Assembly: GCA_964504275.1 (NCBI GenBank)
Contig: CAZDDV010000001.1
Span: 20,982 to 84,981, forward strand
Length of the DNA: 64,000 nt
Direction of reading: 5' to 3'
From: an uncultured Candidatus Saccharibacteria bacterium
GTDB lineage: Bacteria; Patescibacteriota; Saccharimonadia; Saccharimonadales; JAGQNJ01
This document shows, piece by piece, positions 1,061 through 18,944 of the stretch. The notes under the pieces are model-generated. The model was not told the origin of the DNA and did no database searches. It worked only from the letters and a program-made list of their open reading frames with translations. Position numbers and translations under genes: made by a program. Each line of letters begins with the position of its first letter. The first letter of the stretch is position 1.

Positions 1061-1726
1061 TTAAATCGTTTGGGCGAACGCGCATGCATCGACTTTTTTT
1101 GCGCCGGCTTGTTTGAGGGTGCGTGCAGCTTCGTTCAATGTTGCGCCGGTGGTCATGATGTCGTCGATCAAAATGACGCGTTTTGGCATATGGTTCGAAA
1201 CAGGCAAATACGCGCCCTGGACTTGCTGGATTCGTTTTTTGCGCTCACTGGTGACTTGGCGAGTATTACCTGCGCGAGTCAGCAAAGCTTTGCACGGCAA
1301 ATTTCTAATCTGTGCAAATTCTTTGGCAATCAGCTCAGCGTGATCAAAGCCGCGCGTTCTAACCCGAGACCGCGCCGTTGGCACAAATGTTATGGTAACG
1401 TCTTCAAAATACGGCGATGTTTGGTCCAGCCAACTTGCAATCACCACACATGCACTGCGATCTGGATTAAATTTCATATGCCGCACAAGTTGTTTGGCGG
1501 AATCTTTGTAGATCGTACTGACCCATATTTGGCGCAGTGGCGTTTTGGGCTTGCAAAAAGCGCACACCTGAAAGTCACGTGTTTGGGCCTGGCAAAACGC
1601 ACAGCGGCTCGGCACAGCGTCAAATATGTCGGGTAAGCACCAATCGCAGACAATGGAACCTTCGCGCTCGCAACCAAGACAATTGTTCGGTGCGATCAGA
1701 TTTAGTGCACGATCCAGGATTTTCAT
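1061..1726 (-). CDS. comF: ComF family protein (ComFC-like phosphoribosyltransferase-fold competence protein).
   Basis: N-terminal 4x CxxC zinc-finger (CLGCE...CDWC...CAFCQ...CAFC) plus the PRTase motif VILIDDIMTTGATL. ATG at 1726 is preferred over the TTG at 1855 listed in the ORF track. Confidence 0.7.
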   Translation of the reverse strand: MKILDRALNLIAPNNCLGCEREGSIVCDWCLPDIFDAVPSRCAFCQAQTRDFQVCAFCKPKTPLRQIWVSTIYKDSAKQLVRHMKFNPDRSACVVIASWLDQTSPYFEDVTITFVPTARSRVRTRGFDHAELIAKEFAQIRNLPCKALLTRAGNTRQVTSERKKRIQQVQGAYLPVSNHMPKRVILIDDIMTTGATLNEAARTLKQAGAKKVDACAFAQTI

Positions 1727-1898
1727 GCCCACACAATACGCGCCAATAAACACCAGCGCAACCCCGGCAGCTTCTGCTGTTGTGATTAATGTGTTGTAAA
1801 TGATGTAGGGTAGTTGTTGCCCTCTGGTGTCCAGGTACGTTATACTTGCAAGCAAGACAAAAACGTTTTGGACGAACTACTAACGGAGGGTAACAACC

Positions 1899-2381
1899 AT
1901 GGCGCGCAAAAACCGCGACGAAGATTTATTGATTGAAGACGAACTGACAACCGCATTTTTAAGTGACGATGATGTTGCGGCTGCAGCAGGAGTTGCAATG
2001 CCAGCGACAAACACCGAACAACAACCAACAGACGAATGGGACGAAGAAGAAGCTGTTCCTGGACAACTGGCAGTTGATGTATACGAAACCAAAGAAAAAC
2101 TATATGTAAAAGCTCGCACCGCCGGTGTGAACAAAAGCGATCTTGATGTAAGCATCTCTGATAATACCCTACAGGTCCGCGGTACGTTATCTGCAGGCAA
2201 CGAAGACGATGTCGTAAATTATTTTGTACAAGAATGTTACTGGGGTGAATTCTCACGAAGTCTCGCGCTGCCTATTCCTGTCAAAGAAGACGAAGTAGAA
2301 GCCGTACTAAAAGATGGCGTTCTAACAATTAGCTTTACGAAAGTGAAGCAGGATACCGTTAAAAAGATTCAAGTCTTATAA
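1899..2381 (+). CDS. Hsp20 / alpha-crystallin family small heat-shock protein.
   Basis: ACD core LAVDVYETKEKLYVKARTAGV...LDVSISDNTLQVRG...GVLTISFTK. Strong SD ggagg 8 nt upstream of the ATG. Confidence 0.85.
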   Translation: MARKNRDEDLLIEDELTTAFLSDDDVAAAAGVAMPATNTEQQPTDEWDEEEAVPGQLAVDVYETKEKLYVKARTAGVNKSDLDVSISDNTLQVRGTLSAGNEDDVVNYFVQECYWGEFSRSLALPIPVKEDEVEAVLKDGVLTISFTKVKQDTVKKIQVL

Positions 2382-2472
2382 GACTAAGACGCTCACGTGC
2401 CTTTTCTGTTTTCGACTGGGCCGGCTTACAACTTTTCTATAACGTAAAACAAAAATGGTACTTAAAATAAAT

Positions 2473-2510
2473 CACTCGCTCTGGGTTTGCCCCCAAGCGA
2501 GTGTTTTTAT
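2473..2510 (+). terminator. Rho-independent terminator downstream of hsp20.
   Basis: CACTCGCT-ctgggtttgccccca-AGCGAGTG followed by TTTTTAT. Confidence 0.6.
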
Positions 2511-2563
2511 ATCAGTAGGATTGTCTGCAGTTGAACGAACCAATCGGCCCATCCTGGTCATTT

Positions 2564-2598
2564 GCCAAATAAAATACCCCCAAACTTATGGGGGTATT
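2564..2598 (-). terminator. Rho-independent terminator at the end of the pilin-like gene array.
   Basis: On the minus strand: AATACCCCC-ataagttt-GGGGGTATT followed by TTATTT. Confidence 0.5.
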
Positions 2599-2625
2599 AA
2601 TATTAACTACTAAGCCTGTTTTTAC

Positions 2626-3042
2626 TTAAGCTTCTATAACTCGGCCAAGTACAAATCGAACAATTATTTGTGCCATCGCAACAATGACCAAACCGATGAT
2701 AGCGTATAAAATAGTGTTTTTGGCACCGCCAACGCTTCCGGAGTCACCGCCAGAAGTGATGTACTTAAGACCGCCAACGATAATCATAATCACCGACACA
2801 ACACCGACGACAAGCGAAAAGATGTTAATGACAGATGCAACGATTCCATCTAGCTTGGATTTCGCGTCTTCTGTGCTGGTAGTACAAGTTGCAGGGCCAG
2901 TTTTCAGACATGTCCCGCTGTCTAGTGATCCGGTAATATCCGGTTGTTCTGCGGCGAAAACCGCTGCGGGTGTTAAAACTGCGAACAGTGCCACACCTGC
3001 GCTGGCAAGAGCTAGGCTAATTCTTTTTACTAAACTTTTCAT
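2626..3042 (-). CDS. VirB2/TrbC-like T4SS pilin-family protein, paralog A. Signal peptide, Cys-pair ectodomain, conserved C-terminal TM hairpin.
   Basis: SP ...AVFA|AEQ. C45/C53. C-terminal VSVIMIIVGGLKYITSGGD...AKNTILYAIIGL. SD AAGGAA. Confidence 0.55.
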   Translation of the reverse strand: MKSLVKRISLALASAGVALFAVLTPAAVFAAEQPDITGSLDSGTCLKTGPATCTTSTEDAKSKLDGIVASVINIFSLVVGVVSVIMIIVGGLKYITSGGDSGSVGGAKNTILYAIIGLVIVAMAQIIVRFVLGRVIEA

Positions 3043-3131
3043 TCAATAGTTCCTTTCTTTTGAAATACTTTCTTTAAATAAATCTACCACAGTAGTTCCA
3101 TGGGCGCAAGAAACGCTTATACTTATTGTAC

Positions 3132-3563
3132 TTATGTTGCTGGTGGGGCAGGGGTGCCCAGTATACGCCCCAAAACAAAACGAACGATAATCTGCGCCAT
3201 TGCAGTAACCGCCAGGCCAATAATCGCATAGAGGATCGTGTTCTTGGCACTATTAACACCACTGGAATCTCCTGCAGAAGTAATATACTTTAACCCGCCA
3301 ACAATAATCATAATTACAGATATAACACCGACGATTAGGGATAGGATATTAATTGCCGCCGCGATAACACTATTAATCCTAAGTTGAGCATCTGCAGTCT
3401 GCCCGGGATTACAGGCAGTATTTTGCAAATTTGCTCCCTTACAAGCTTCTTCTTTTGAGTTTGGAAAAAGCTGGGCATGAGCCGGCACGGCAAAAACTAG
3501 CGGAGACATGACCGAGAGCGTTATAAGTGCTGCCCTGATAAGTATTTTTAGTTTTTGAAGCAT
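3132..3563 (-). CDS. VirB2/TrbC-like T4SS pilin-family protein, paralog B.
   Basis: SP ...PAHA|QLF. Two Cys. C-terminus nearly identical to A (ISVIMIIVGGLKYITSAGD...AKNTILYAIIGL). Confidence 0.55.
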   Translation of the reverse strand: MLQKLKILIRAALITLSVMSPLVFAVPAHAQLFPNSKEEACKGANLQNTACNPGQTADAQLRINSVIAAAINILSLIVGVISVIMIIVGGLKYITSAGDSSGVNSAKNTILYAIIGLAVTAMAQIIVRFVLGRILGTPAPPAT

Positions 3564-3582
3564 ATGTTTTTCCTTTTTATTT

Positions 3583-3984
3583 TTATAGTTTACTAAGCAA
3601 AAATGTCACTATCGCCTGAGCGATTGCGGCCACCGCTAAGCCCGCAAGCGCCGCTATAATGGCTTTTTGCATCGTAGCAATTGTATTTGAATCTCCGTTT
3701 GAGACCACAATTCTAAGTCCAGCAATAACGACTGTAAAGACAGCCACAATGCCCAAGATCATCACGAGTAATTGCACCGCTTTGGTCATGATGCCCTCTG
3801 GCCCCAAGATTGGACTAGAGCTAGAACCCGTCGCATTATCCTTGCAAACGGCTGGAGCGTCACCGGCTCGATTGCAAACAGGTTTTAATATATCTGTCTG
3901 AGCTAACGCGACGCTTACTGGCATGAACGTAATACCTAGACTCACTAAGATCAGTACAAACATATTACGGAGTCTTTTGATCAT
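3583..3984 (-). CDS. VirB2/TrbC-like T4SS pilin-family protein, paralog C.
   Basis: Start at ATG 3982-3984 (MIKRLRNMFVLILVSLG...ALA|QTD), overlapping the upstream stop as TGATG. Motif PVCNRAGDAPAVCKD, then GLRIVVSNGD...QKAIIAALAGL. Confidence 0.5.
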   Translation of the reverse strand: MIKRLRNMFVLILVSLGITFMPVSVALAQTDILKPVCNRAGDAPAVCKDNATGSSSSPILGPEGIMTKAVQLLVMILGIVAVFTVVIAGLRIVVSNGDSNTIATMQKAIIAALAGLAVAAIAQAIVTFLLSKL

Positions 3985-4319
3985 CACAGCCTCCCTAAAA
4001 CTACAGAAATAATTGCCTCGGCCAACACAACTATGGCCAGCCCAACACACGCATAAATAATAGTTTGGCGGGCCTTAGCGATAGATTGCGAATCTCCTTG
4101 TGATGTCACTAATTGAAAACCCGCAATAACGATGTAGATAACGGTAACGATACCTATAACTCCAAAGAACACCTGTAAAAAACGGCCTACGACTGGCGCA
4201 TCCAACTGCGCTGTGGGCAAAAGAGTGCCGTTACACGCATCAGGCCCAGCGTTGAAATCACAATTCGCTACGCCTAGTGTCCTCAGGTTTATTTCGTGAG
4301 CAATCAAAAAAGCGTTCAT
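3984..4319 (-). CDS. VirB2/TrbC-like T4SS pilin-family protein, paralog D.
   Basis: NCDFNAGPDACNG Cys pair. C-terminus VIAGFQLVTSQGDSQSIAKARQTIIYACVGL. No obvious cleavable signal peptide. TGATG coupling at both ends. Confidence 0.45.
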   Translation of the reverse strand: MNAFLIAHEINLRTLGVANCDFNAGPDACNGTLLPTAQLDAPVVGRFLQVFFGVIGIVTVIYIVIAGFQLVTSQGDSQSIAKARQTIIYACVGLAIVVLAEAIISVVLGRL

Positions 4320-4720
4320 TATTTTATCACCTGTCCAACTACATAAGTCAGTACTGTTGCAGAGGCAAGCGCAATCACCATCCCAACAACAGATTTTATA
4401 ATAGTATCGCGAGCCTGGGCGGTTTTATCTGGCAAGCCCTGGCTTGAAATATACCGAACGCCGCCCACTATAATAAAAACCGTTGCGACCATAACCGCAA
4501 TACGTAGAAGCATGTCGGTTACCGCCGCCACAATGAGCCAAACATCGTTTATAGAGCTAATCTGCGGAATGCACTGTAATCCACCGATGGAATCAGTCAG
4601 TAGTTGGCCTGGCAAGTATTTATACCATGTAGGGAACACCCCTAGTATTTCTGTACCTGGCTTGCAAGAAGCGGTCGCCGCCTGTCCAAAATTTTGCAAA
4701 AAATTAACAAACGAAATCAT
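4319..4720 (-). CDS. VirB2/TrbC-like T4SS pilin-family protein, paralog E.
   Basis: C19/C50. C-terminus FIIVGGVRYISSQGLPDKTAQARDTIIKSVVGM. SD AGGAAA. Confidence 0.45.
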   Translation of the reverse strand: MISFVNFLQNFGQAATASCKPGTEILGVFPTWYKYLPGQLLTDSIGGLQCIPQISSINDVWLIVAAVTDMLLRIAVMVATVFIIVGGVRYISSQGLPDKTAQARDTIIKSVVGMVIALASATVLTYVVGQVIK

Positions 4721-4728
4721 ATTTTTTC

Positions 4729-5634
4729 CTAGAGTAACCCTCTCGGGATAATCCAGTTTAGTATAGCATAGATAAACATAAAGAAGACCATCGCGCCAAC
4801 ACTACTAACGATGCGCTTAATCGCGTCCGCTGTGGCCTTTGGGTTACCTCCAGATGTAGTAAATTGTATACCGCCGACAATTATAGATGCAACGCAAACA
4901 ATACCTGCCCCAACTGACAAAAAGCGGGAAATTGCCAAGATCATGTCAATGATTGCATTACCCTCGCCCCTACAGCCTATGTCAATACTGGTAAATGTTT
5001 GCCCTTGATCGTCGCTTCCACACTTATACTTATCCGCTTCTGGCAATTTAACTTTTTTGTTGCTCACGGCTAAGGCTGGCTGCGAAGACGTTGCACCAGT
5101 AATGTTTGAGCACTCAGTTTCACGAGCATTCGCCTGAACCGTGCCAGCACCGACACCGCCAGACAACACAAAACACCCGGGCGCTAGCGGAACATCGGCC
5201 GGGCAATTAATTTTTCTAAAGCCACCCACGCTTGCAGATTCAAAACAATTCGCAACCGTGGTGTCATAGGTGATAATCGGCAAGTTGCCAGGCTTATCGT
5301 CCCTAGGAAGCAGTGGAGTAGATGTTGCTTCTGGGCCATTGGCATCATAGCAAGTTGTCTCGACTGGCTTTGTTGGCCCGTATTGCGTGCCCCAACTTAT
5401 ATAGCATTTACCGCCCTGTGGCTCAAAGGCTGGATAAATTGTTTTGATGCCCTCACAGGAGCGGCTGAGCCAAATAATTACCGTTGATCCTGTCGCGGGC
5501 GCACTGACCCAGCAACCTGGTTCAAACCGATGTGCCGAAGCTGGTTGCGGCCTATACAAGCTTGTGCCAAATACACCAAACGCCAAAAATAATCCAGAAA
5601 AGAACGCCAAGAATAAATTACGATTTTTTATCAT
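4729..5634 (-). CDS. Large pilin-family paralog F. About 220-aa ectodomain with 10 Cys, same C-terminal TM hairpin; candidate tip/adhesin subunit.
   Basis: SP/TM MIKNRNLFLAFFSGLFLAFGVFG. C-terminus VASIIVGGIQFTTSGGNPKATADAIKRIVSSVGAM. SD GGAGC. Confidence 0.45.
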   Translation of the reverse strand: MIKNRNLFLAFFSGLFLAFGVFGTSLYRPQPASAHRFEPGCWVSAPATGSTVIIWLSRSCEGIKTIYPAFEPQGGKCYISWGTQYGPTKPVETTCYDANGPEATSTPLLPRDDKPGNLPIITYDTTVANCFESASVGGFRKINCPADVPLAPGCFVLSGGVGAGTVQANARETECSNITGATSSQPALAVSNKKVKLPEADKYKCGSDDQGQTFTSIDIGCRGEGNAIIDMILAISRFLSVGAGIVCVASIIVGGIQFTTSGGNPKATADAIKRIVSSVGAMVFFMFIYAILNWIIPRGLL

Positions 5635-6136
5635 TCGGTTGCTCCAGTTCTATATCATACCGATTTATGCGATAAGTATCTTCTTGTTTCACAATATTAA
5701 ACACGAACTTCAGCATCGTGCCGCCTTGTTTGGTTGGGCACGTGTAATTAACTATCTGTTCGGAATTTGCCGCGTCCGCCACGCACTGGGAGACATCAAC
5801 GTTGGCAAAGACAGATGGTACTTGGGCAACATACTTTTCTTGGGTAACTAGGTTCTGGGTCTCGCTAGAAAATAATTTAAAGGCGTTTTCGTATGTTCCG
5901 TCTGCCATGTGGCGAAAGTATTGCTCTGGTACTTGGGAAGCAACATCAAACTTGGGGCCACTGGCTGTTTTGACATTATTATTAGACATTACAAAAATCA
6001 GGCCAACAATCAGACCGAATACGCCAATCACCCCACCGAACAAAACAAAAGGGTTTGGGCCTTTTTTCTGAATTGGGGCTTGTTGGTTAGTTATAAAATC
6101 GTAATTTGGTTGTACGTTTTGGTTTTGATCGTTCAT
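5618..6136 (-). CDS. Hypothetical bitopic membrane protein (N-terminal TM plus extracytoplasmic domain). Possible VirB8-like T4SS component.
   Basis: ATG at 6136 is preferred over the GTG at 6211. Single TM PNPFVLFGGVIGVFGLIVGLIFV. Position in the operon. Confidence 0.3.
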   Translation of the reverse strand: MNDQNQNVQPNYDFITNQQAPIQKKGPNPFVLFGGVIGVFGLIVGLIFVMSNNNVKTASGPKFDVASQVPEQYFRHMADGTYENAFKLFSSETQNLVTQEKYVAQVPSVFANVDVSQCVADAANSEQIVNYTCPTKQGGTMLKFVFNIVKQEDTYRINRYDIELEQPNDKKS

Positions 6137-6261
6137 GATTTGATTCCATCGTACCGCAAAAACGGCTATCAGAAAAGCCCCTGCAACTTGAATCCGATTT
6201 TCCGGTATCACAAAGGTTTCTTTTGTTATAAAATAAGCACGACAGGTTAATTTAGCTACTT

Positions 6262-9200
6262 ATGCAAAATATTTTTAAAGATTTTAAGGTGTGGTCTACT
6301 CGGTTTGCCCTTTTTACAGCAACCTTTGTGTTTTTTAGCACTCTTATTCTTGGCACCATGACCGCGCAAAAAATTAACGCGCAAACTAAGGTGCTACTAT
6401 CGCCGTCCGAACATGCAATTAAGTATCAGGTTATGCAGTTCCTAAAAGTTTGTGGCGACAACAAGGGCTGGCACAGTAGCCAAGGAGCTGGAACTCGGAG
6501 TGAGGGCCTCTCGGCAGAGGAGCTCAACCAAGGGCGGTTCTTTGATGATGAAATTAAAGATTCAACGATTTTTGGAAACGAAATCAGTGTAGGAGCGCTT
6601 ACTGATGATGATGATGGCAATTTCAACTGCTTAGTAAAGCAAGGGACACCCGCAGTTGTTGTTAACCAGCAATATGACGTACAAAAGGCGGTGCAATACC
6701 AGCAAGAAGACCTTATAAAGTTTCTCGTGGAGAGCAATGTATATCGTGTGGGCGAAAACGGCAGATATTACCTACATGATGAAGAAGATTCTGATCGCAG
6801 CAACAAAGTTATTGAGTATTTCAAGAATAACAATCAGGGATATTCATTCGACGGAGATCTGCCTGATAGTGCGAAATATTTTAACTGGAAGGCGTCCTAT
6901 TTAAAATTTTGTGCAGAAGGTGGAAAGCCAATCGATAGTGGCAGCATAGAATTGCCAAATGTAGGAGAAGACGGGAAAAGACAAAACGACAAGTTTCAAA
7001 TAAAAAGTGATGCGGCCGGAAATAAATCGGTTGGTAGAGGAATGGGCCAAGGAGATCGCGACGAATTCAGTTGTAATGAAATAGCCGACGGAATGCGCGC
7101 CACGGCCGACGCTGCAGTCAAGGGCGTCGAGGATTACGTAAAAGCTGGTGGTAAAGTTAAGCCGAACCCAAATGCGCCGGGTACGGCGGATGATGATAGC
7201 CCAACCTGCGAAAGCTCTGGCGGCATTACTTGGGTGATCTGCCCATTTATCAACGGTTTGGCCGAGCTTGCCGATGGTGCATTCGAAAAACTAATAATTC
7301 CACTACTCAAGACGAGTCCGGTCGACACGACCAATACTAGCAGCCCTATATTCCAGGTTTGGCTGGGGATGCGTAATGTTGCCAATATTTTGCTAGTTAT
7401 TGCCATGATCGTCATTGTGTTTGGTCAGGCAATTGGCGGAGGATTGGTAGACGCCTATACCGCCAAAAAAGTACTACCCCGCATCTTGGCAGCTGCAATT
7501 ATGATAAACCTGTCTATTTATATGGTCGCGTTTGCGGTCGATGTTACGAACGTTATTGGGCAAGGCTTATCAAGACTTATCTATGCACCATTTGATCAAG
7601 TTGGAGCTTTTAAATTTAATCTTTCTTCCTCTACAGCTGGGCTTGGTTTTGTAGGAATGATAGCTGCAAGTGCCGCCATTTGGAAGATCGGCGCTTTGAT
7701 TCCATATTTGTTACTCTTCGTTCTCCTACCCCTCGTACTCGCGGCAGTAGGTGTAATCTTTACGCTCGTACTGCGAATGGGGCTCATTCAGTTCCTGATA
7801 ATCAGCAGTCCGGTTGCTTTTGTGCTGTACTGCCTACCGAACACCGAAAAGTACTTTCAGAAATGGTGGAGTTTATTCATAAAGACATTAATGGTTTACC
7901 CTATCATTGTTCTGATATTCACATTAGCCGACGTAATCGCAGTTACAACGGACATTGCCGCTCAAGAAAGCGATCAAGAAGTTACAGCTGCATTTGGTCA
8001 ACTGATCTCTGTTGTTCTTCTGGTGCTGCCATTATTCATGGTACCCTACGCATTTAAGCTTGCTGGTGGTGCCGTTGGTGCCGTACACGGCGCCCTTTCT
8101 ACTGGCGGCAAAAAGAGCGTCGAAGCCATCAAGGGCAACCCCAACGACCCAAATAGTTTGCGCAACAGAACAAAACGTAACGTTGGATCCTCAATGGTTA
8201 AAAACCGCGCTCAGCTTGTTCGATCAAACCTCGACTATAAAGGCACGGGTTTGAACGCGCGACTCCGTCGAAAATTTGGCGAAAAAGTTAACTATGGAAA
8301 TATAATGGATAAAGAAGCCGAGATCAACGAAGATGCCGCTAAGCGAATGGGCCGAACGATTGGGGCGGGTGACGATCGATACATACGAGCACGGACTTCT
8401 TTGCCACTTTTCCAAAAAGCGGGAGGGGGCGAAACTACTAATACAGCAGAAGCTGTGATGGATACCAGTGGGACAGCTCTGCGCCTACTCAATAAAGATA
8501 CGGGTCAAGCAATGCGCACTTCACTTAATGGACAAAAACGTTTTACTGATGTCGACTACAAAAAGTCTACGCAACTATTCCAAACCATGGGTGAAATGCA
8601 AGAGGCAGTAAACCATGAAGCCAAAAAAACACTTACCGATGGCGACACCGACCGCTTAGTCGGAGGTTACGGCGATTGGGCAAAGCAAGAAGGATTGACG
8701 AAAGAGCAGGCCAGCGGATTATTCACAGGAGTTGCTTTTGCGCGGCAAGGTGAGCGACTTGAACTCAAGCACAGCACGGTGGATGAAGAGATTGACCCTG
8801 ACGATCCGAAAAAACGCAGACTATTCGTCAAAAGCGCAACTGACAATATGAGCGGCACATCAATTGATAGTACCGGTACTGTGAATAAAATCGGGGGACG
8901 CGATGCGTTTGTTCAAGAGCTCTATGACAAAAAGGGCAGTTGGGCAGTTTCACAAATGCATGATTCAACTATCAATCAAGTTGGTGAAGCTAAAGAAAAA
9001 TATGCTGCAGAAATTAAAGACCTATCTTCCAGAGAATCACTCGGAACACTCAGCGAGCAAGAACTTGGAAGGCTTAAATTATCACGGGAAAAACTTGATC
9101 ACATTCAAGAAATGGAAGAATCTTGGGTGGCCGACCCAACCCGAACCGCAACAGGAATTCCAATGGGTGCAGTCGATGACAAGGGTACGCCTGGCTATAG

Positions 9201-9405: not shown

Positions 9406-9411
9406 GTAATT

Positions 9412-10488: not shown

Positions 10489-10502
10489 GCATCTCTCGGA
10501 GC

Positions 10503-11399
10503 GTGTTCGGTGGGCAAAATTATATGAATCCACAGCAAAATTTACCAAACCAGACTGTTCCACAATCTGCTCCGCCAAGTGCGGCCTTCGCGCCAAACCC
10601 GGTAGTTGTGTCTGGCCAGCCACAAAACGGCAACCAAACAAATTTACAACCGCCACAACCACAAGTAAAAGTTAACCCAACCAGTACGCAAAATGTGTTG
10701 CAAGTTGCCGAGATCCGAGACGGCATTGTGATCATGAATGACGGCTCATTCCGATCTGTTATTATGGCGAAATCGATTAACTTCGACCTGATGAGCCAGA
10801 TCGAACGCGAAGGTGTCGAGGGCGGCTACCAAGCGATGTTAAACTCACTGTATTTTCCAATCCAGATTTTTATGCGCAGCCAAAAAGTTGATTTGCGACC
10901 GTACATCGAAAAGCTCGACAAAATCCGCACCGAACACGACAACATGCTGTTAGCATTATTAATGGAAGATTACATAAATTATATTTCTGAGCTATCGACG
11001 CAAACCAACATCATGGACAAAAAATTCTATCTGGTGATCCCGTATTTTCCAAAGGCCGACGTGCAAAAAGCGATTACCCAAAGTAAAAACTTTTTTTCTG
11101 GACTAGGAAATATTTTTAACTCCAAGCCAACACATGTGACTATCAACGAAAAGGATTTAGAGGATGCAAAAATTGAACTCCGAAACCGCGTGCAATCAAT
11201 TTTGGGCGGACTAATGCGATGTGGTGTCAAAGCCCTGCCGCTGGATACGCAAGAATTAATCGAGCTATTTTATGACAGCTACAACCCCGATACCGCCACA
11301 CGCCAACAGCTCAAAAACTTTGATGATTTATCTGTGCCAATCGTAACCAAAGGCAAAGGCGCTGCGCCACAACCAAACCTCAACAAGGATCTCCAATGA
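10503..11399 (+). CDS. Hypothetical protein; possible detached N-terminal domain of VirB4.
   Basis: GTG (10503) or ATG (10524) start. P/Q-rich N-terminus. The stop overlaps the virB4 ATG (ATGATG at 11396-11401). Confidence 0.35.
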   Translation: MFGGQNYMNPQQNLPNQTVPQSAPPSAAFAPNPVVVSGQPQNGNQTNLQPPQPQVKVNPTSTQNVLQVAEIRDGIVIMNDGSFRSVIMAKSINFDLMSQIEREGVEGGYQAMLNSLYFPIQIFMRSQKVDLRPYIEKLDKIRTEHDNMLLALLMEDYINYISELSTQTNIMDKKFYLVIPYFPKADVQKAITQSKNFFSGLGNIFNSKPTHVTINEKDLEDAKIELRNRVQSILGGLMRCGVKALPLDTQELIELFYDSYNPDTATRQQLKNFDDLSVPIVTKGKGAAPQPNLNKDLQ

Positions 11400-13321
11400 T
11401 GTTTGGTAAAAAAATCCCTACTAATGACCCGGTGGCGCTAGCACAAGCCCAGCGCGCCCGCGAACAGCAAGAAGTAAGCGTTGCGTTCCAAAAAGGCGTG
11501 GTGGCGCTGCGAGATTTTATTGCACCAAGTTCGATCGAACTTAAAAACGCTTACTTTCACATCGGCACACGACTAGCCCGAACCTTTTACGTCTACGCCT
11601 ATCCGCGCCAGGTGTACACCGGCTGGCTCAGCGGCATGATTAATATCGACGAGATTATTGATTTATCAATGTATATCTACCCCGTAGAAAGCCAAGTCGT
11701 GCTCGAAAACTTGCGCAAAAAAGTTTCTCAGCTAGAAGCAGGGCTGCAAATTGACGCCGAAAAGGGCCGCGTGCGCGACCCGGGCAAACAAGCCGCAATT
11801 CAGGACGCCGAAGAAATGCGCGACAAATTGCAAGTTGGCGAAGAACGCTTCTTCCGCCTGGGCTTTTACTTTACGCTGTATGCCGACAGCTTGGATGAAC
11901 TCGACTTTGTCACGCACAAGATTGAATCGATGCTCGGCCAACAACTGGTGTACTCCAAGGTCGCAACAAGCCAGCAAGAACAAGGGCTCAACAGTACGAT
12001 TCCGCAGTTTACTGACCAGCTGCAAATTCGCCGCAACATGAGTACCGGAGCAATTAGCACGACATTCCCGTTCACTAGTGCCGACCTCAGCCAAGATTCT
12101 GGCATTTTGTACGGTATTAATATGCACAACTCTGGTCTTGTTATTTTTGATCGCTTTACGCTCGAGAACAGCAACTCGGTGGTGTTTGCAAAATCTGGTG
12201 CGGGTAAATCGTTTGCGGTCAAACTCGAAGCGCTGCGCAGCATGATGTTCGGCACCGAGGTTGTTATTATCGACCCAGAAAACGAATACCAGCGCATGTG
12301 CGAAGCAGTTGGTGGTGCGTATGTTCGGCTCAGTCTGTCGTCGGCGACTCGAATCAATCCTTTTGATTTGCCAAAAGTCATCGATACCGACGAATCCGAC
12401 AACGCCCTGCACAGCAACTCGATCACACTTCTGGGCCTACTGCGCCTAATGATGGGTGGCGCGCAAACCCAAATGTTGGCTTCGGCCTCTAGTGGCGGTG
12501 GTGGCTTTGCGCCGTCGTTATCTCCGGTTGAGGAAGCCGATCTTGATGCGGCAATTATCGAAACGTACGCCAAAGCTGGCATAACCAAAGATCCGCTGAC
12601 GCACAACTCGCCGCCGCCAACAATTACTGATTTATACGATACACTGCTACACATGGGCGGAACTGGGCCACAACTTGCCCAGCGACTGCGCAAATACACC
12701 ACTGGTACGTTTGCGGGAATCTTTAGCCAGCAGTCCAACATCGACATCAATAACCAAATGGTGGTGTTTAACATTCGCGATTTAGAGGACGAACTTCGCC
12801 CGGTTGCTATGTACATTGTGCTCAATTACATCTGGAACAAAACCAAATCCGACCAACGAAAACGCTTGTTGATCGTCGACGAAGCCTGGCAATTAATGAA
12901 GTATGAAGATTCGGCCAACTTTATGTTTAGTCTTGCCAAACGTGCCCGAAAATACAACCTGGGTATTACGACGATTTCGCAGGATGTCGAAGATTTCATG
13001 GCTAGCAGAATGGGCCGCGCCATCGTCGCTAATGCTTCGATGCAATTATTGCTCAAGCAGGCGCCTTCGGCAATTGATGTGTTGTCAGATATCTTTAAAC
13101 TCACCCAGGAAGAAAAAAGTCGCCTAACGCAGTTCCCGATTGGTCAAGGATTATTCTTTGCTGGCCAAAACCATGTGCATATTCAGATTATCGCCAGCCC
13201 AACCGAAACCGGCCTAATTACCACCAATCCTGCGCAGGTCCAACAAATGAACGAACAAGGACAACTTGAGGGCGAGCAGGGCACCATCGACCTTAAAAAC
13301 CGCCTCCAACCGGGCGTATAA
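11396..13321 (+). CDS. virB4: VirB4/TrbE-family T4SS ATPase.
   Basis: Walker A FAKSGAGKSF and Walker B LLIVDEAWQL. 641 aa. Confidence 0.8.
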   Translation: MMFGKKIPTNDPVALAQAQRAREQQEVSVAFQKGVVALRDFIAPSSIELKNAYFHIGTRLARTFYVYAYPRQVYTGWLSGMINIDEIIDLSMYIYPVESQVVLENLRKKVSQLEAGLQIDAEKGRVRDPGKQAAIQDAEEMRDKLQVGEERFFRLGFYFTLYADSLDELDFVTHKIESMLGQQLVYSKVATSQQEQGLNSTIPQFTDQLQIRRNMSTGAISTTFPFTSADLSQDSGILYGINMHNSGLVIFDRFTLENSNSVVFAKSGAGKSFAVKLEALRSMMFGTEVVIIDPENEYQRMCEAVGGAYVRLSLSSATRINPFDLPKVIDTDESDNALHSNSITLLGLLRLMMGGAQTQMLASASSGGGGFAPSLSPVEEADLDAAIIETYAKAGITKDPLTHNSPPPTITDLYDTLLHMGGTGPQLAQRLRKYTTGTFAGIFSQQSNIDINNQMVVFNIRDLEDELRPVAMYIVLNYIWNKTKSDQRKRLLIVDEAWQLMKYEDSANFMFSLAKRARKYNLGITTISQDVEDFMASRMGRAIVANASMQLLLKQAPSAIDVLSDIFKLTQEEKSRLTQFPIGQGLFFAGQNHVHIQIIASPTETGLITTNPAQVQQMNEQGQLEGEQGTIDLKNRLQPGV

Positions 13322-13332
13322 ATATTTAGATT

Positions 13333-16300
13333 ATGGGATTACCAGCAAGAAACCTCAACGAAGATGATGACCGAAAACTAAGCGCCGCCGAGCGAGCAGA
13401 GCGACAATGGGGGATGGATCCATCGTCTGAGCCAAAAAACCCAAACGATGACGATACAAAAAAATCGGCACGAGAACGTGCTGATGAAAGTTGGGGGATG
13501 AATTCTGGTGGCGAATCTGACACCAAAGATGGCGGACTGTACAACCCATCCGGCGATTCCGACGAACGCGCCGCTCTTGATGGATCTAAGCCAGATAGCG
13601 CGATGGGCGTGAAAGAGCTTTATGCTGGCGGTGACAAAGGCGGTGCGAAGCGGATTATCATAGAGGACTTCTTTCGCAAAAAAGGTATTCCAATAATTGG
13701 TGGTGGCGCTGGAGCCATAATGATCATTATGTTTTTATTCGTGTCGTTTTTTTCTATAAATAAAACTGCCCATATAATTGAAGATATCGAAAACAAAGTG
13801 GGTAATGTGCCCGAGTATGCCGTGGAGCGTCGCTTGGAATACTACATGAGCCGTTATTTGATTCTGCGACAACTTGCAAAAGCCGGCGTTCCGGAGGCTA
13901 CGATCCAAAAAGAATATGTGTACCTCAGTAAAAAGGGTAGTACTTTTGATACACTCTACACTAACTGGAAGGGAGCGAAGCTAGAGGGCCTCTTAGAAAG
14001 TGAGTATGGTGTGCGCTTGCAGCCACGTAATCTAGAGGTAAATACCAAGGTGTGGAATCGCGAATATGCGCAACCGAATCGTTGGGAGATTGAAATCGTA
14101 GATGCTGGCAAGGCAAGAGCAAAAGGCATTAACCCGGGTTCGTTAAATTCTATAGAATCGCGAAAATTTATAAATATTCTTGCCAACAAAGAAACCCGTT
14201 CGTTTCAGGTACTCAAGCGTTACAACGTGCGTAAAAACTTAAAAAAATACAATGGCATCGATGGCTGGAAACAATTTGCATACGACAAAAGCGAAAAATA
14301 CAAAAACGCCACAGATCGTTACCGAGAAGGTAAAAAAAACTTTAAGAAAAAAACCATAGAGAACACGATCAAAAGAGTCAACGTGAATTGGGGCAATTAT
14401 ATGATTTGTCTTATCGATGGCGACCCAAAAAAAGCCTGCAAGGATATTCGCAAGGGCAAGACCCCTTCCACAGAAGTAGGCAGCATGATTGATGAAAGCG
14501 AACTAACTGGAGTGGTCGACGAGGCGCTAGACAAAAAGATAGTACGCGAAGGAGCCGAAGAAGCAGGCGAACGCGCAGGGAAAGAGATCACTCAAAAAGT
14601 AACGGCGTCGACGGTCAAAAAATTCTCTGCTCGCGCAATACCTGTGGTTGGCTGGGTGATCGGCGCTAGCCATCTTATTAACTCTGCTGATAATGGAATA
14701 CTAAGCCAGGTCATATACCAAAGAAACGCTACTCAGTATGGGGCGTTCGGCGCAGGGTTCATGAGCGGGTCTGACCAAATAAAGTCTGGTATCGACATAG
14801 ACGGTGACGATGCGCGAGTTCTCAATGAAACGTTTACCAATTACGAGCAGGAAAGCCAAGTTTACCGCGCTTCTCGGCCAGGCTATAAAATTGAACCGGG
14901 TAAAAAAATAAAACAAGACTGCAATAACGACGGCGACACAACTGATGCAGATGATTTTGTGACATCCGATGACCCTGTGTGCGCGTCTAAGAAAATACTC
15001 CAACCCAAAGAAACTTTCACAGAAGACCCTGCCTGGGAGGTTGTTGCCGGACTATCCCAAAAACTAACTGGAGAAGACAGCTGGATAAAATCAGTGATCG
15101 ACGTTTTTGAAGGTGGGTTAGCAACAGTTATGGAAAAAACAGGCATCTCGGCTGGTATTGCATATATCATAGAAGAAACTGGTGCAGATAAAGCGCTTGC
15201 TGAGAAATTTCAAGAGCTGCTCGCTAAAATAGCGGCCCCTGTTATTACTGGTGCAGAGTCAGGAGGCTCAGCATACGATGCGTTATTCGCTAGCATCTCG
15301 GTCCAAAAATCTTCTCTTGGTGGCGGTGTTGGCGAAAATCGTGAAGATACAATTGGAGGTGCGGTTTTAAGCATGGAGGAGGTCGCCCAGATAAAAGAGG
15401 ATCAGTACGATAAACGACAGTTAGAGTTGAGGGGCACTGAGAAGTTTGCCAGATACTTCTCGCCCGATATCCCCGAAAGTCTAACGTCACAAGCGGTGAT
15501 GGCGCTACCGTCATCCTCGACGCAAACTGTGAGCAAGTTTAGTAGTTTGCTCAATCCAGGAAATTTTATTAAAGGGTTGGCATCAGCTTTCACGAGCAGT
15601 GCAGAAGCCCAAAACTCACAAGACTATAACTTCTTTAATGCGATTTACTACGGATACCCGTCGGACAGCGACGTATTCAATGCAAATGATGGCAGCGGGA
15701 TGGAGCACGATGAGTTGTATAAAAAATACAAATGCGATGAGCCTATTGAGAAGCGTCAGGAAAATTCAATGGGCAATGTTGAAGGAATTCCGTTCAAAGT
15801 GGCAGTCAAAGTAGACCCATGCTTGCTCGAAAAGGCGGTCGAAGACGCCGGCAGTCGATACTTTACCGGTGCGTATGACGAAGGTATCGACGAAGGGTCG
15901 AAAAGAACCTCTGGCGGCCAAACTGGCCTACTTAACCCGGGTGGCTTGGCGTGGCCAACCAAGGCCGAAGGTTCTCATATATCTAGCTGTTTTAACGAAC
16001 CGCGCTCTGGCGGGCCCCACAAAGGAATGGATATTGCCATTGCAGCCGACACTCCAGCGTTTGCAGTCGCTGACGGCGAAGTCATCATAGCTGGCGGCAA
16101 GGCAGACGGCTACGGACCAAACTATGTCGCCATAAAACACACCAAAGCCGACGGCACCACCTTTGTTTCTGGTTATGGACACATGAATTCAAAAACAGTT
16201 GAGGTTGGCGACAAAGTTACACAAGCTCAGCAAGTGGGCACTATTGGTAGTCTGGGTTATTCTACAGGACCCCACATGCACGTCATCATAAATGTCGGTG

Positions 16301-16395
16301 GGAAAGATAATTTTAATGGCGATGTTGACCCGCTTACTAATGGGATGGAAGTTCCCCCGGGAGCACTGAACGCAAAAGGGTGCCCGAAGTACTAA
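13333..16395 (+). CDS. T4SS-associated cell-wall hydrolase. Acidic N-terminal tandem repeats, one TM, a large central domain and a C-terminal M23/LytM peptidase.
   Basis: Repeats AERAERQWGMDPS / ARERADESWGMNSG. TM IIGGGAGAIMIIMFLFVSFF. M23 motifs PHKGMDIA...GHMNS...GPHMHV. Confidence 0.6.
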   Translation: MGLPARNLNEDDDRKLSAAERAERQWGMDPSSEPKNPNDDDTKKSARERADESWGMNSGGESDTKDGGLYNPSGDSDERAALDGSKPDSAMGVKELYAGGDKGGAKRIIIEDFFRKKGIPIIGGGAGAIMIIMFLFVSFFSINKTAHIIEDIENKVGNVPEYAVERRLEYYMSRYLILRQLAKAGVPEATIQKEYVYLSKKGSTFDTLYTNWKGAKLEGLLESEYGVRLQPRNLEVNTKVWNREYAQPNRWEIEIVDAGKARAKGINPGSLNSIESRKFINILANKETRSFQVLKRYNVRKNLKKYNGIDGWKQFAYDKSEKYKNATDRYREGKKNFKKKTIENTIKRVNVNWGNYMICLIDGDPKKACKDIRKGKTPSTEVGSMIDESELTGVVDEALDKKIVREGAEEAGERAGKEITQKVTASTVKKFSARAIPVVGWVIGASHLINSADNGILSQVIYQRNATQYGAFGAGFMSGSDQIKSGIDIDGDDARVLNETFTNYEQESQVYRASRPGYKIEPGKKIKQDCNNDGDTTDADDFVTSDDPVCASKKILQPKETFTEDPAWEVVAGLSQKLTGEDSWIKSVIDVFEGGLATVMEKTGISAGIAYIIEETGADKALAEKFQELLAKIAAPVITGAESGGSAYDALFASISVQKSSLGGGVGENREDTIGGAVLSMEEVAQIKEDQYDKRQLELRGTEKFARYFSPDIPESLTSQAVMALPSSSTQTVSKFSSLLNPGNFIKGLASAFTSSAEAQNSQDYNFFNAIYYGYPSDSDVFNANDGSGMEHDELYKKYKCDEPIEKRQENSMGNVEGIPFKVAVKVDPCLLEKAVEDAGSRYFTGAYDEGIDEGSKRTSGGQTGLLNPGGLAWPTKAEGSHISSCFNEPRSGGPHKGMDIAIAADTPAFAVADGEVIIAGGKADGYGPNYVAIKHTKADGTTFVSGYGHMNSKTVEVGDKVTQAQQVGTIGSLGYSTGPHMHVIINVGGKDNFNGDVDPLTNGMEVPPGALNAKGCPKY

Positions 16396-16396
16396 T

Positions 16397-18268
16397 ATGA
16401 GGATACCTTTTACGAATCTGATGATTTGGCTACGACTACTAAAGAGACTGTCCTTGTTGATACTGGCTGTTCTGTTTTTATCGAGTCTTGCTCTGACCAC
16501 CAAAGTTTCGGCACAAACACCTCAGCCGACAGAGTTAACCCGCGATCAAGCCATGAACTATCCGATGCTTGGTTTTGGTGGCTGTAGTGGCACCCCGGGA
16601 AGCTCAGCGCCCTCAGCAAAAATAAATGGCAAAAATATCTACATACTTGGTGACTCAATCACCGCCGGCGCTAAAGATGCATACAAAGATGCGTTCAAGG
16701 ACAAGGACCTAACCATCAGTGCTAGAGTGGGACGTTCGTGGGGAACGGCAGGGCAAGACTCGCCAGCAAACATTGGCAGCCAAGGCACTGGTAAAGAGGC
16801 CTTCGCGGCCGACACTGAAAAAATTAAATCCGCGGACGCAATTATTATTGCGCTCGGCACCAACCAAATGGGTGGAGATGAAGCCAGCCAAAACCCGATC
16901 GGGAGCATCATTACCGCTTTCCGTGGCGTCAATGAAAAAGCCCCAATCTGGTGGGTAAATATCGCTAACAGCGGGGTCGCGGGAGTACCTAGTTTCAACG
17001 AAACACTCAAACAACAGGCAGGCGATAAGTATACCGTGATCGACTGGGCAAAAACCGTTGACCCAACTGGGGATGGCACAAATAACCCCGGCAAACTCCT
17101 GTCGACCGACGGGACACACCCAAGCTCCGAGGGTACCAAAAAATTGGTTGATTTGGTCGTTAGTGCTGTCACAAGCGGCGCTGGCGTACAAAATAATGGA
17201 GTTGCGGCTGGTGACTGTAAATGTAGTAGCGGTGGCACTACAGGCGGAGGAGACGCGATCACCAAATTCTTGCAAGCGCTGGCATTCCAAGAAAGTGGCG
17301 GACAGTTGAACTTAGTGAGTTCTGGTTCAGCGCGTGGAAAATTCCAGTATATTGACTCGACGTGGAAAGGCGTCGCCCAAAAGTACTATCCACACGCGTT
17401 GAAATACGCAAACGCAAACGGGGCGCCAGAATCAGTCCAAGACGCACTCGTCTATATCGAGTACACCGATAAATTTAACACTTTTAACGGCGATCTGTTC
17501 AAGCTGGCTGTCAGCCATTTCTATCCTTTGGCAAACCAGGAGGCTAAGTGGCTCGACATAATTCCGCCATCAAATGTCGTAACTCCAAGACAATACGCAG
17601 AGAAATTAGTTGCGGGATATAACAGTGGTGCCGGAAAAGAAATAAAATTCTACTATAACGATGCGCCGGAGTTTAAAGAATCTCTTGCTGCTGTTGGTGG
17701 CCAAACTACCGCTAGCGTAAAAAGCGGTGAGGGCAGTTGCAGCGCGCCTGGCCAAATCGGACCAGGTGAAGCCGCTGGTAAGATCGTGGAAACCGCTCTT
17801 AACCTGGCATGGGACACCAAAAAAGACGGATTAATTGAAGAGAAAGACGCAAAACCAACCTACCAAGCGGCCATGCCAAAATTTAATGGAAGCACCAACA
17901 CAACCGGCGATCCAAAACTAACGCCATGGTCCGATTGTGGTGTATTTGTCGCAACGGTCATGCATATGAGCGGCGTTGATACAGCATATCCAAAACGTAA
18001 CACTCTTACTCAAGAACCATATACGACAAACTCCGAAAGATACGAGCGCATCACGAACGTGACCGACTCTTCACAACTAAAGCCCGGGGACATCATTATA
18101 AACAAACACCACACAATGATTTTCGTCGGCCCACAAACAGGCCCAGCGGGTGAATACAACACCGTTGACGCATCATTTGGTGATCGCGTACCCGGAGCAA
18201 AAGTCTTTGCTCCTCATCCAGACACCCAAGACCCTGATTCGTATGATGCGTATAGGATAAAAGGATAA
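16397..18268 (+). CDS. Secreted multidomain peptidoglycan hydrolase: SGNH/GDSL hydrolase plus lytic-transglycosylase-like domain plus C-terminal CHAP/NlpC-P60-like domain.
   Basis: Signal peptide. GDSITAG block. FLQALAFQESGG (SLT-like catalytic E). SDCGVFVATVMHMSG...HHTMIFVG (Cys/His). Confidence 0.5.
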   Translation: MRIPFTNLMIWLRLLKRLSLLILAVLFLSSLALTTKVSAQTPQPTELTRDQAMNYPMLGFGGCSGTPGSSAPSAKINGKNIYILGDSITAGAKDAYKDAFKDKDLTISARVGRSWGTAGQDSPANIGSQGTGKEAFAADTEKIKSADAIIIALGTNQMGGDEASQNPIGSIITAFRGVNEKAPIWWVNIANSGVAGVPSFNETLKQQAGDKYTVIDWAKTVDPTGDGTNNPGKLLSTDGTHPSSEGTKKLVDLVVSAVTSGAGVQNNGVAAGDCKCSSGGTTGGGDAITKFLQALAFQESGGQLNLVSSGSARGKFQYIDSTWKGVAQKYYPHALKYANANGAPESVQDALVYIEYTDKFNTFNGDLFKLAVSHFYPLANQEAKWLDIIPPSNVVTPRQYAEKLVAGYNSGAGKEIKFYYNDAPEFKESLAAVGGQTTASVKSGEGSCSAPGQIGPGEAAGKIVETALNLAWDTKKDGLIEEKDAKPTYQAAMPKFNGSTNTTGDPKLTPWSDCGVFVATVMHMSGVDTAYPKRNTLTQEPYTTNSERYERITNVTDSSQLKPGDIIINKHHTMIFVGPQTGPAGEYNTVDASFGDRVPGAKVFAPHPDTQDPDSYDAYRIKG

Positions 18269-18271
18269 CCC

Positions 18272-18937
18272 ATGCAATTTGATGGAATTTCATTAATAAA
18301 ACGCTATAAAAACCTTCTAATTATTGGAGCGGTCTTGATTGCAGTAGGGCTTATCGCGTCTCAAGCATACAACTATTGGCGCGCGCAAAACTACGCCGTG
18401 CTAATCGTGAACGGATCTCCGGTTGACCTCACAATGCAACTCGGAGACAAGAAGTACAAAAAACCATCCAAAATTTACGTTTCGCCAGGCGAATACACAC
18501 TAGGGTTTTCACGCGATAACTTTTCGTCAACATCCAGAAAAGTAACTCTTGAAAAACAAAAAACCACCACAGTTAACGTTCCGCTATACGCCACCAACGA
18601 AGAAGGGGAGAAATATTTTAAAATCCCTGCTAACCAAACGCAAGCAGAGTTTGTTGGTGGGCTTTGGGAAGACGAAACTTCGACCAAGTTCACTAATGAC
18701 TTCCCGATTGTTCGCTCACTCCCTATTACTAGGCGTGATTTTATTATCGATTATTCATCACGTGGAGAGCTCGAAAATCGTACCATTTATATTCGGATTA
18801 CACATGCTGGTACGCTCGGCAAAAAAAATGCCGAAGACTGGATTCGTCAAAAAGGCTATGATCCAGCGACGTTCGATATTTCGTACATTGATATTTCAAA
18901 AATTCCAATAGGAACCGATGAGGGAAGCGGGCATTAA
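18272..18937 (+). CDS. Hypothetical membrane-anchored protein; last gene of the T4SS-like operon, possible VirB8-like component.
   Basis: N-terminal TM LLIIGAVLIAVGLIASQAY. SD aaggat. Confidence 0.3.
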   Translation: MQFDGISLIKRYKNLLIIGAVLIAVGLIASQAYNYWRAQNYAVLIVNGSPVDLTMQLGDKKYKKPSKIYVSPGEYTLGFSRDNFSSTSRKVTLEKQKTTTVNVPLYATNEEGEKYFKIPANQTQAEFVGGLWEDETSTKFTNDFPIVRSLPITRRDFIIDYSSRGELENRTIYIRITHAGTLGKKNAEDWIRQKGYDPATFDISYIDISKIPIGTDEGSGH

Positions 18938-18944
18938 GCTCCAG

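Follow-up and report, generated by a model that had tools for sequence, protein, structure and literature searches.

A type IV secretion system (T4SS) whose locus holds neither a coupling protein nor a relaxase raises the question of what such a machine is for. The locus in question spans 2.6-18.9 kb of a 64-kb stretch of DNA from an uncultured Candidatus Saccharibacteria bacterium (contig CAZDDV010000001.1, positions 20,982 to 84,981; the whole stretch is referred to below as the window). The analysis covered this one window, a further ~8 kb upstream that was read from a sister haplotype in the same metagenome, and the gene neighborhoods of 80 related Saccharimonadales loci, some of whose flanks end with the contig. 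The matching contigs came from a microbial-mat metagenome and the organism is an environmental member of the Saccharimonadales. A preliminary description of the window had proposed a DNA-uptake device, for which ComB of Helicobacter was the precedent, or a host-interaction machine, rather than a conjugation system. The explanation favored here, with a probability of about 0.75, is that the locus is the known origin-proximal chromosomal T4SS of Patescibacteria, a derivative of the mating pair formation class MPF-FATA without a relaxase or type IV coupling protein (T4CP) in cis, that most likely serves as a conduit or attachment device in contact with the host.

The ancestry of the system was read from its motor. 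The VirB4 ATPase (641 residues; 11396-13321, plus strand) scored 94.5 bits against P-loop_TraG and has a Walker A motif, AKSGAGKS, at residue 265. It was assigned to a class by the curated NCBIfam cut-offs, while its placement in a clade was taken from a published tree. VirB4 passed the conju_CD1110 model of the monoderm MPF-FATA class (NF045971; 365.7 bits, cutoff 325) and failed the VirB4_CagE model (TIGR00929; 116.3 bits, cutoff 643.1). The scores for CedB (NF041017; 49.4 bits, cutoff 700) and CedD (28.6 bits, cutoff 600) were also below cutoff and TcpF gave 26 bits. ComB4 falls in the VirB4/CagE family of diderm VirB systems. The best relative of known structure was the VirB4 domain of a Firmicute, Thermoanaerobacter (4AG5; 4.6e-50), whereas TrwK of R388 matched at only 4e-6. 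The protein is 78-85% identical to its counterparts in 80 genomes labelled Candidatus Saccharibacteria or Saccharimonadales, and its closest plasmid-borne relatives, at 35-38% identity, are from Actinomycetota and Bacillota. In the published phylogeny, the VirB4 proteins of Patescibacteria form a monophyletic clade nested in MPF-FATA (PMC12102498). These relationships indicate that the system derives from monoderm conjugation machinery.

Since VirB4 passed the CD1110 model and failed both VirB4_CagE and CedB, a ComB-like ancestry was rejected. The Helicobacter pylori ComB system resembles the window locus in that both lack VirD4, VirB11 and a relaxase and have VirB2-, VirB3-, VirB4- and VirB6-like parts, but ComB is of the diderm VirB type, has VirB7-10 and acts through ComEC, while the window locus has no outer-membrane core; Pfam and NCBIfam scans found no VirB7-, VirB9- or VirB10-like domain in any open reading frame (ORF) of the locus.

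Two genes lie directly upstream of virB4. The first, a 298-residue ORF (10503-11399, plus strand) that the preliminary description had not named, overlaps virB4 by 4 bases and encodes a TrsD-like protein, a detached VirB4 N-terminal domain. Its NCBIfam matches fell well short of the cutoffs (TrsD: 1.5e-5; 24.9 of the 200 bits required), while PF26593 TraC-like was recorded for an identical product. It covers positions 106-180 of the CD1110 profile (25.2 bits against 325) and VirB4 matches the same profile from position 185, so that VirB4 is split between two genes. The second encodes a PrgI/VirB3-like protein of 358 residues with a long Pro/Gln-rich tail (9412-10488, plus strand; PF12666, 34.8 bits, cutoff 27). 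Upstream of virB4, the TrsD-like gene was found in 72 of 81 loci and the PrgI gene in 80 of 81.

The closest described counterpart is SEML1_0005-0019 of the oral epibiont Southlakia epibionticum ML1 (Wang et al. 2023, Cell, PMC10633639), of which the window locus is a gene-for-gene mirror image, flanks included. In ML1 the order is dnaA (SEML1_0001), dnaN, recF, 0004, a PEGA protein (0005), a protein with two lysozyme-like domains and a Cys-peptidase (0006), a large protein with a C-terminal DD-peptidase (0007), VirB4 (0008), a 294-residue protein (0009), PrgI (0010), a VirB6-like protein (0011), an NTF2-like protein (0012), a second VirB6-like protein (0013), six pilins (0014-0019), Hsp20 (0020), ComF (0021) and tRNA-Ser (0022) (PMC10633639). 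Neither locus has a T4CP or relaxase. The differences are that ML1 has two VirB6-like genes and the window one; that the window has a 301-residue protein fused to a pilin domain; that the catalytic C-terminal domain of the first wall hydrolase is M23 in the window but M15/DD-peptidase-like in ML1; that the second hydrolase combines SGNH and SLT-like domains in the window but glucosaminidase and phage-tail lysozyme in ML1; and that the window lineage is environmental while ML1 is oral. Transposon sequencing (Tn-seq) in ML1 showed that SEML1_0005-0011 and 0013-0019, that is, all but the NTF2-like SEML1_0012, are growth-defective or essential (PMC10633639). The suggestion of a host-interaction machine thus gained support from the requirement for the ML1 orthologue in epibiotic growth, although that reading, including the ComB analogy, was already in print.

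The same type of system has been catalogued more broadly, as a Patescibacteria-clade T4SS present in 2,417 of 3,035 genomes (Quinonero-Coronel et al. 2025, Microb Genom, PMC12102498). It comprises TrsD, PrgI, VirB6 and 2-11 VirB2 genes and lies near dnaA, with no relaxase and no adjacent T4CP; its authors proposed that it imports DNA or other macromolecules from the host (PMC12102498). The window locus shows no essential difference from this description. Its plus-strand operon is followed by recF, dnaN and dnaA (18945-22793, minus strand), with rnpA and yidC beyond, and five near-consensus DnaA boxes lie within 265 bp upstream of dnaA (22828-23092), which makes this the probable position of oriC, ~4 kb away from where the T4SS operon ends. 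Among the 80 related loci, the T4SS gene order was the same wherever the fetched flank reached; dnaA was found in 55 and recF in 67, the remainder being cut by contig ends.

Is the locus nevertheless part of a conjugation system? The preliminary description had seen no VirD4, relaxase or oriT-like element in the window, and the scans agreed. Among ORFs of at least 250 residues in the 64 kb, a Walker A motif occurs only in VirB4, RecF, DnaA and the Wzt ABC ATPase, none of them a T4CP. Pfam scans of the large ORFs between 24 and 64 kb identified a polysaccharide cluster and no relaxase, integrase, T4CP or replication-module gene. The locus contains no notable inverted repeats and no oriT-like repeats were seen, though an oriT is not excludable by sequence. 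The possibility that virD4 and a relaxase lie just outside was also addressed: no domain of either was present in the ~8 kb upstream in the sister haplotype, where the genes are small ORFs without assignment, TrmB, HIT, a HAD/HTH protein and a class-I aminoacyl-tRNA synthetase (probably valyl- or leucyl-).

The statement that the system lacks a coupling protein holds for the locus but need not hold at the genome level, to judge from ML1, which has two T4CP-like genes elsewhere. SEML1_0293 has Pfam T4CP domains and was called non-essential, while SEML1_0142, a core, Patescibacteria-enriched gene with a TraM-recognition domain, was called essential at each of the three time points of Table S1 (PMC10633639). 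The published mention of a non-essential T4CP homologue in ML1 fits SEML1_0293, and SEML1_0142 is a second T4CP-like gene. More generally, T4CP homologues were reported for 2,918 of the 3,035 Patescibacteria genomes, in almost every case at a long distance from virB4 (PMC12102498).

Related systems are also carried on plasmids. In Enterococcus pCF10, the Prg/Pcf genes have the same order of a VirB6-like protein (PrgH), PrgI, VirB4 (PrgJ, of the CD1110 family), a large wall hydrolase (PrgK) and a small VirB8-like protein. However, pCF10 also encodes the T4CP PcfC, the relaxase PcfG, MobC and surface adhesins and has no pilins, PrgJ is only 24% identical to the window VirB4, and it is in the window that VirB4 is split. 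The closest VirB4 found outside the candidate phyla radiation (CPR), 38.6% identical, is on a linear plasmid of Embleya sp. NBC_00896 (NZ_CP108778; Streptomycetaceae). There, a VirB2-like pilin ORF is directly followed by the gene for a 753-residue polytopic, VirB6-like protein, PrgI with a TrsD-like part, and VirB4; unlike the window locus, this cluster is plasmid-borne and virB4 is followed by a T4CP, a replication-relaxation family gene and an NlpC/P60 protein, because of which the Embleya cluster looks conjugative. The Embleya pilin is an unannotated ORF of 176 residues (10577-11107, plus strand, of the fetched stretch) with a clear VirB2/T4SS-pilin motif VGGVRYLMAGGDP. The same module was also observed on the 898-kb plasmid of Pontibacillus sp. 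ALD_SL1 (NZ_CP062975; Bacillota), at 10483-20036 of the fetched stretch, where it consists of an Mbov_0395-type pilin, a 779-residue membrane protein, a TrsD-like protein, VirB4 (36% identity) and a 1050-residue M23 protein. Within 15 kb of the Pontibacillus module no T4CP or relaxase is annotated, and flagellar genes adjoin it. Versions of this T4SS type without a relaxase may therefore exist outside Patescibacteria, and the Embleya and Pontibacillus pilins show that pilins are not an addition made only by CPR bacteria to this monoderm branch.

A still-functional conjugation or mobilization system, served by a coupling protein and an unrecognized relaxase encoded elsewhere, would account for a VirB4 that passes a curated conjugal ATPase model, for the T4CP and replication-relaxation gene beside the closest plasmid relative, and for the abundance of T4CP homologues in Patescibacteria. 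This explanation was nonetheless judged very improbable. The chromosomal site is fixed next to oriC in related loci and there are no integrase, replication or partition genes; relaxases were found in no more than 103 of the 3,035 Patescibacteria genomes (PMC12102498) and the word relaxase is absent from the ML1 annotation tables; and genes for conjugation would not be expected to be essential for growth. The earlier view that this is not a conjugation module was thus borne out.

A second possibility is that the T4SS pilus imports DNA or nucleotides, either from the medium as in ComB or from the host by a ComEC-independent route as in the archaeal Ced system, and so feeds an organism unable to make nucleotides. 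The absence of a T4CP and relaxase in cis is shared with both ComB and Ced, and the competence gene comF is a conserved near neighbor in Saccharimonadales and in ML1. Moreover, the competence machinery is dispensable in ML1, hence nucleotides must enter by another route, for which the published authors named the T4SS as a candidate. A 2024 PNAS perspective had already cited H. pylori ComB as precedent for a role in nucleotide acquisition. Finally, TM7x mutants in the type IV pilus T4P-2 remain competent.

The position and conservation of comF, on closer inspection, offered less to this proposal. The ComF-family gene (1061-1855, minus strand; translation probably starts at M44, position 1726) encodes a PRTase domain and a zinc ribbon with four CxxC pairs; it scored 36 bits against Pfam Pribosyltran, above threshold, while DZR_2 was below threshold and the curated comF model TIGR00201 gave E=6.5e-22 and 78.4 bits, below the cutoff of 233.55. 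It is the positional orthologue of SEML1_0021, a flanking gene outside the machine. The preliminary description placed comF immediately outside the pilin array, but two elements lie between them: the small heat-shock gene hsp20 (1899-2381, plus strand; PF00011, 64.6 bits), which is convergent with the pilin operon, and a strong terminator-like hairpin just past the final gene of the pilin array (2573-2598, minus strand; a 10-bp stem with 5 GC pairs and a T-run). The two together would separate comF transcriptionally from the pilins. ComF is only 37% identical across species compared to 82% for VirB4, and so evolves independently, even though comF was beside the T4SS locus wherever the fetched Saccharimonadales flanks reached. 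Co-localization with comF was highlighted for the class ABY1 (PMC12102498); here it extends to Saccharimonadales, though with hsp20 intervening. As to hsp20 itself, the protein is identical in both haplotypes, and its position is kept in S. epibionticum, where the orthologue SEML1_0020 was called essential. A link between Hsp20 and the T4SS, for example in pilin handling, is possible.

The functional data are also unfavorable to DNA uptake as the main task. In ML1, comF (SEML1_0021), comEC (0777) and dprA (0298) are non-essential, and deletion of comEC abolishes transformation (PMC10633639). Mutants in these genes grow normally and T4SS mutants do not, although transformation needs ComEC, and consequently the essential role of the T4SS is not Com-dependent uptake; a 2025 FEMS review likewise concluded that T4SS essentiality cannot stem from interplay with ComEC. 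In addition, VirB4 is neither of the ComB4/VirB4_CagE type nor of the CedB type, the hypervariable pilins and swapping wall hydrolases described below would be unexpected in a DNA-binding machine, and a direct route of import from host to epibiont is hypothetical. Import of DNA or nucleotides was accordingly considered unlikely.

The components beyond the motor bear on the host-contact explanation. The preliminary inventory of pilins, a VirB3-like protein, VirB4 and two peptidoglycan hydrolases was sound; the pilins, PrgI, VirB4 and the M23 and GDSL domains of the hydrolases each scored at or above the curated threshold. The pilin model was Pfam T4SS_pilin PF18895, with a gathering score of 26.6 bits, which five ORFs in the window reached and a sixth approached from below. 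All are on the minus strand: pilin 1 (138 residues; 2626-3042; 41.9 bits and a weak TrbC match), with a signal peptide, the pair Cys45/Cys53 and a hairpin of two transmembrane (TM) helices; pilin 2 (143 residues; 3132-3563; 38.0 bits), 49% identical to pilin 1; pilin 3 (133 residues; 3583-3984), borderline at 26.6 bits; pilin 4 (111 residues; 3984-4319; 35.3 bits), without a classical signal peptide; and pilin 5 (133 residues; 4319-4720; 40.0 bits). The length of pilin 3 is counted from an internal Met, as the gene was called in a related contig, and the ORF itself runs from 3583 to 4050 (155 residues). Identity among the paralogues in the window is 22-49%, and every pilin has the features of a two-TM hairpin and a Cys pair in an exposed N-terminal segment.

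The sub-threshold sequence (301 residues; 4729-5634, minus strand; PF18895 21.5 bits, with a weak match to the Mbov_0395 pilin-like model NF045849) has a signal peptide, a Cys-rich ectodomain of ~200 residues (11 Cys in the protein) and a C-terminal two-TM domain of the pilin type, and may be a pilus-associated, tip or specialized subunit. Adjoining it is a bitopic membrane protein with an NTF2-like ectodomain (5618-6211, minus strand; 172 residues from M26 in an ORF of 197), a candidate VirB8-like component.

The large polytopic protein of 1047 residues (6262-9405, plus strand) has a variable N-terminal ectodomain, a TM bundle at ~323-624 and a C-terminal domain at ~630-1025; at least six TM helices were predicted in the protein. 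No direct match was obtained in Pfam, in NCBIfam or by phmmer against the PDB, nor with a 44-sequence profile against the PDB, and an hhalign comparison of the family with PrgH of pCF10 gave no profile match. The AlphaFold2 model (pLDDT 72.8) showed a helical membrane bundle and a well-folded C-terminal domain, and Foldseek searches with it returned repeated but non-significant matches to TrwI/VirB6 of R388 (8rtd_L: probability 0.89, E 0.17). PF19590 was precomputed on most homologues, although this tag was not reproduced with current Pfam and its name was not found in a literature search. There was also a weak BLASTP match (3e-5) to the positional counterpart on the Pontibacillus plasmid. The gene precedes prgI-virB4, as in pCF10, and its ML1 counterparts are annotated VirB6-like. 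The VirB6-like label given in the preliminary description was retained because of this position, the TM helices, the PF19590 tag on homologues, the Foldseek matches to TrwI and the ML1 annotation; its position and topology agreed, while a direct family match did not materialize.

Three exported or membrane-anchored proteins are encoded downstream of virB4 on the plus strand. The first is a membrane-anchored protein of 1020 residues (13333-16395) with TM 117-149 and a C-terminal M23 peptidoglycan endopeptidase domain (PF01551, 72.7 bits; PDB matches down to 1e-17) in which the HxxxD and HxH motifs are present; by domain and position it would take the place of PrgK, the VirB1 role. The second is an exported multi-domain hydrolase of 623 residues (16397-18268) with an SGNH/GDSL esterase domain (GDSL_2, 40.6 bits, above threshold), an SLT/lysozyme-like stretch with E299 and an NlpC/P60-like tail with C514 and H572. 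When the segment was scanned by itself, SLT and Transglycosylas scored 24.3 and 20.3 bits, below threshold; the NlpC/P60-like tail was faint and a PDB sequence search gave no match; E299 and H572 are near-invariant among the positional orthologues. The third, and the last gene of the operon, encodes a PEGA-domain protein of 221 residues (18272-18937; PF08308, 21.0 bits against 20.8), whose ML1 counterpart, SEML1_0005, is annotated PEGA and was called essential.

The two large genes after virB4 keep their position and size among genomes, and their catalytic wall-degrading domains differ. In 45 genomes, the first position had VanY (14), GDSL (5), M23 (4), M14 (2) and amidases, and the second had phage-tail lysozyme (24), GDSL (15), M23 (9), Amidase_3 (7), C39-like (6), CHAP (6), NlpC/P60 (6), glucosaminidase (5), SLT_2 (4) and GH3 (3).

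Conservation across the locus is graded. The median identity to the window protein across 80 species was 82% for VirB4, 77% for Hsp20, 71% for DnaA and 67% for the TrsD-like protein, 46% for PrgI and 35-51% for the pilins, 30% for the VirB6-like protein (for which the best aligned stretch was ~36% of the protein) and 24-32% for the hydrolases (partial alignments).

The comparison with the sister haplotype showed the same unevenness at close range. The sister haplotype consists of contigs NODE_5192 and NODE_1864 of ERZ505514, which co-occur in the same microbial-mat samples; they leave 7701-9099 of the window uncovered, and the comparison therefore stops short of the central region of the VirB6-like gene and the greater part of its C-terminal portion. 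Nucleotide identity was 99.9% over the tRNAs, comF and most of hsp20 (1-2250), 65% over the five pilin genes (2626-4720), 96.5% over the N-domain of the 301-residue protein and the NTF2-like gene (4991-6200), 45% over the VirB6-like gene (6201-7500), 84% over the N-terminal part of PrgI (9412-9900), 99.8% over the PrgI tail, the TrsD-like gene and virB4 (9901-13321), 52% over the first ~840 residues of the M23 protein (13333-15850), 100% over its catalytic domain (15851-16395) and 99.9% from the second hydrolase through PEGA, recF, dnaN and dnaA (16397-23300). Three cassettes (~2300-5000, 6200-9900 and 13300-15900) are thus 45-71% identical in a backbone of 99.8-100%; in amino acid sequence, identity is 64-76% for the pilins and 56% for the M23 protein. 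Both haplotypes are backed by independent assemblies: the window haplotype is also present in Logan SRR6448209 (100% over 5,450 nt) and IMG 3300020057, and the sister haplotype in IMG 3300020219 and Logan SRR6448204. A full-text search of a limited literature collection found no paper describing this mosaic, and a 2026 preprint on host defense against epibionts makes no mention of the T4SS.

The predicted exposed parts behave as recombining cassettes in a clonal backbone, which fits a structure that meets a variable partner. It can be proposed, tentatively and with rather more doubt than confidence, that the pilins, the VirB6-like protein and the ~850 non-catalytic residues of the M23 protein are exchangeable specificity cassettes. 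Recombination together with frequency-dependent selection would maintain their polymorphism within a single population, in contrast to the clonal motor and catalytic domains.

The pilin cassette also bears on a third alternative, in which the T4SS is an adhesion-only pilus of the Bartonella Trw kind that has dropped translocation and whose variant pilins bind different host surfaces. Trw, for which host-specific adhesion has been proposed, has no T4CP and has tandem divergent VirB2 copies, two hallmarks that the window locus shares, and the pilins differ between otherwise identical haplotypes. On the other hand, Trw belongs to the diderm MPF-T class and has amplified VirB5, of which no copy was found in the window locus, and the resemblance is functional, not by descent. 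Adhesion alone appears quite unlikely: Saccharibacteria already bind their hosts by type IV pili, a large VirB6-like channel protein, whose folded C-terminal domain is conserved, has been retained in the locus, the two dedicated wall-cutting enzymes suggest passage through walls, and the T4CP-like ATPase SEML1_0142 was called essential in ML1.

For the host-contact conduit or attachment device favored above, the following mechanism can be envisaged: 1) by homology, VirB4 with its detached TrsD-like N-domain, anchored by PrgI/VirB3, would form a platform on the VirB6-like and NTF2-like proteins, 2) VirB4 would drive assembly of a VirB2-type pilus or channel from the five divergent pilins and the pilin fusion, 3) the two large exported hydrolases, whose domains were identified directly, would cut peptidoglycan as their presumed target, 4) the structure could thereby cross the wall of the epibiont and probably that of the host as well, 5) the apparatus would be needed for the epibiotic lifestyle, as Tn-seq indicates for the ML1 orthologue only, in a role independent of ComEC, ComF and DprA (shown in ML1) and 6) macromolecules would be exchanged with the actinobacterial host, by either effector export or import of host material.

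Several observations weigh against this explanation. The function is transferred from one cultivated relative that belongs to another family. No pilus or channel has been reported for any Patescibacteria T4SS in the literature searched, and reviews call its function 'completely unknown'. The VirB6-like label is the weakest assignment in the locus, and the VirB8-like assignment of the NTF2-like protein is also weak, as NTF2 is a common fold. Phage pressure or host defense could equally give rise to hypervariable surfaces. T4SS mutants of ML1 are not viable and the TM7x pilus mutants remain competent, so that the T4SS may yet contribute to DNA capture.

The remainder of the window contains features of other kinds. 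Two tRNA-Ser genes (764-856 and 928-1017, minus strand) lie beyond comF. Between dnaA and dnaN, and overlapping both gene ends, there is an ORF of 93 residues (21122-21403, minus strand) that matches no family and has hardly any homologues among related genomes, but was called as a gene in the sister contig. From 24700 to 64000 the window is occupied by a ~40-kb cluster for polysaccharide or glycoconjugate synthesis, with many GT2 and GT4 glycosyltransferases, PMT-like transferases, a flippase, a Wzm/Wzt-type ABC exporter, sugar epimerases and dehydratases, a UDP-glucose dehydrogenase and an initiating sugar transferase; three of its large ORFs (553, 499 and 620 residues) have no Pfam match.

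The Patescibacteria T4SS is the first T4SS reported to be essential to the bacterium that carries it. Both the system and the hypothesis of import from the host, with ComB as precedent, are already published and the locus is in this respect a rediscovery; what may be useful here is a clean test, which rules out a ComB-like descent of the system. The closest conjugative relative, still equipped with a pilin, a T4CP and a relaxase-like gene, is carried by an actinobacterial plasmid, and cultivated Saccharibacteria have their hosts in the same phylum, Actinomycetota. The parts worth following are the mosaic cassettes and the swapping of hydrolase domains, as the hypervariable cassettes point to interaction with the host surface and offer a handle for work on host range. 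If the proposal of exchangeable cassettes is true, then together with the hydrolase swapping it would mean that the T4SS determines which host envelope an epibiont can breach; in a related reading, the T4SS would itself be a target of host or phage counter-defense.

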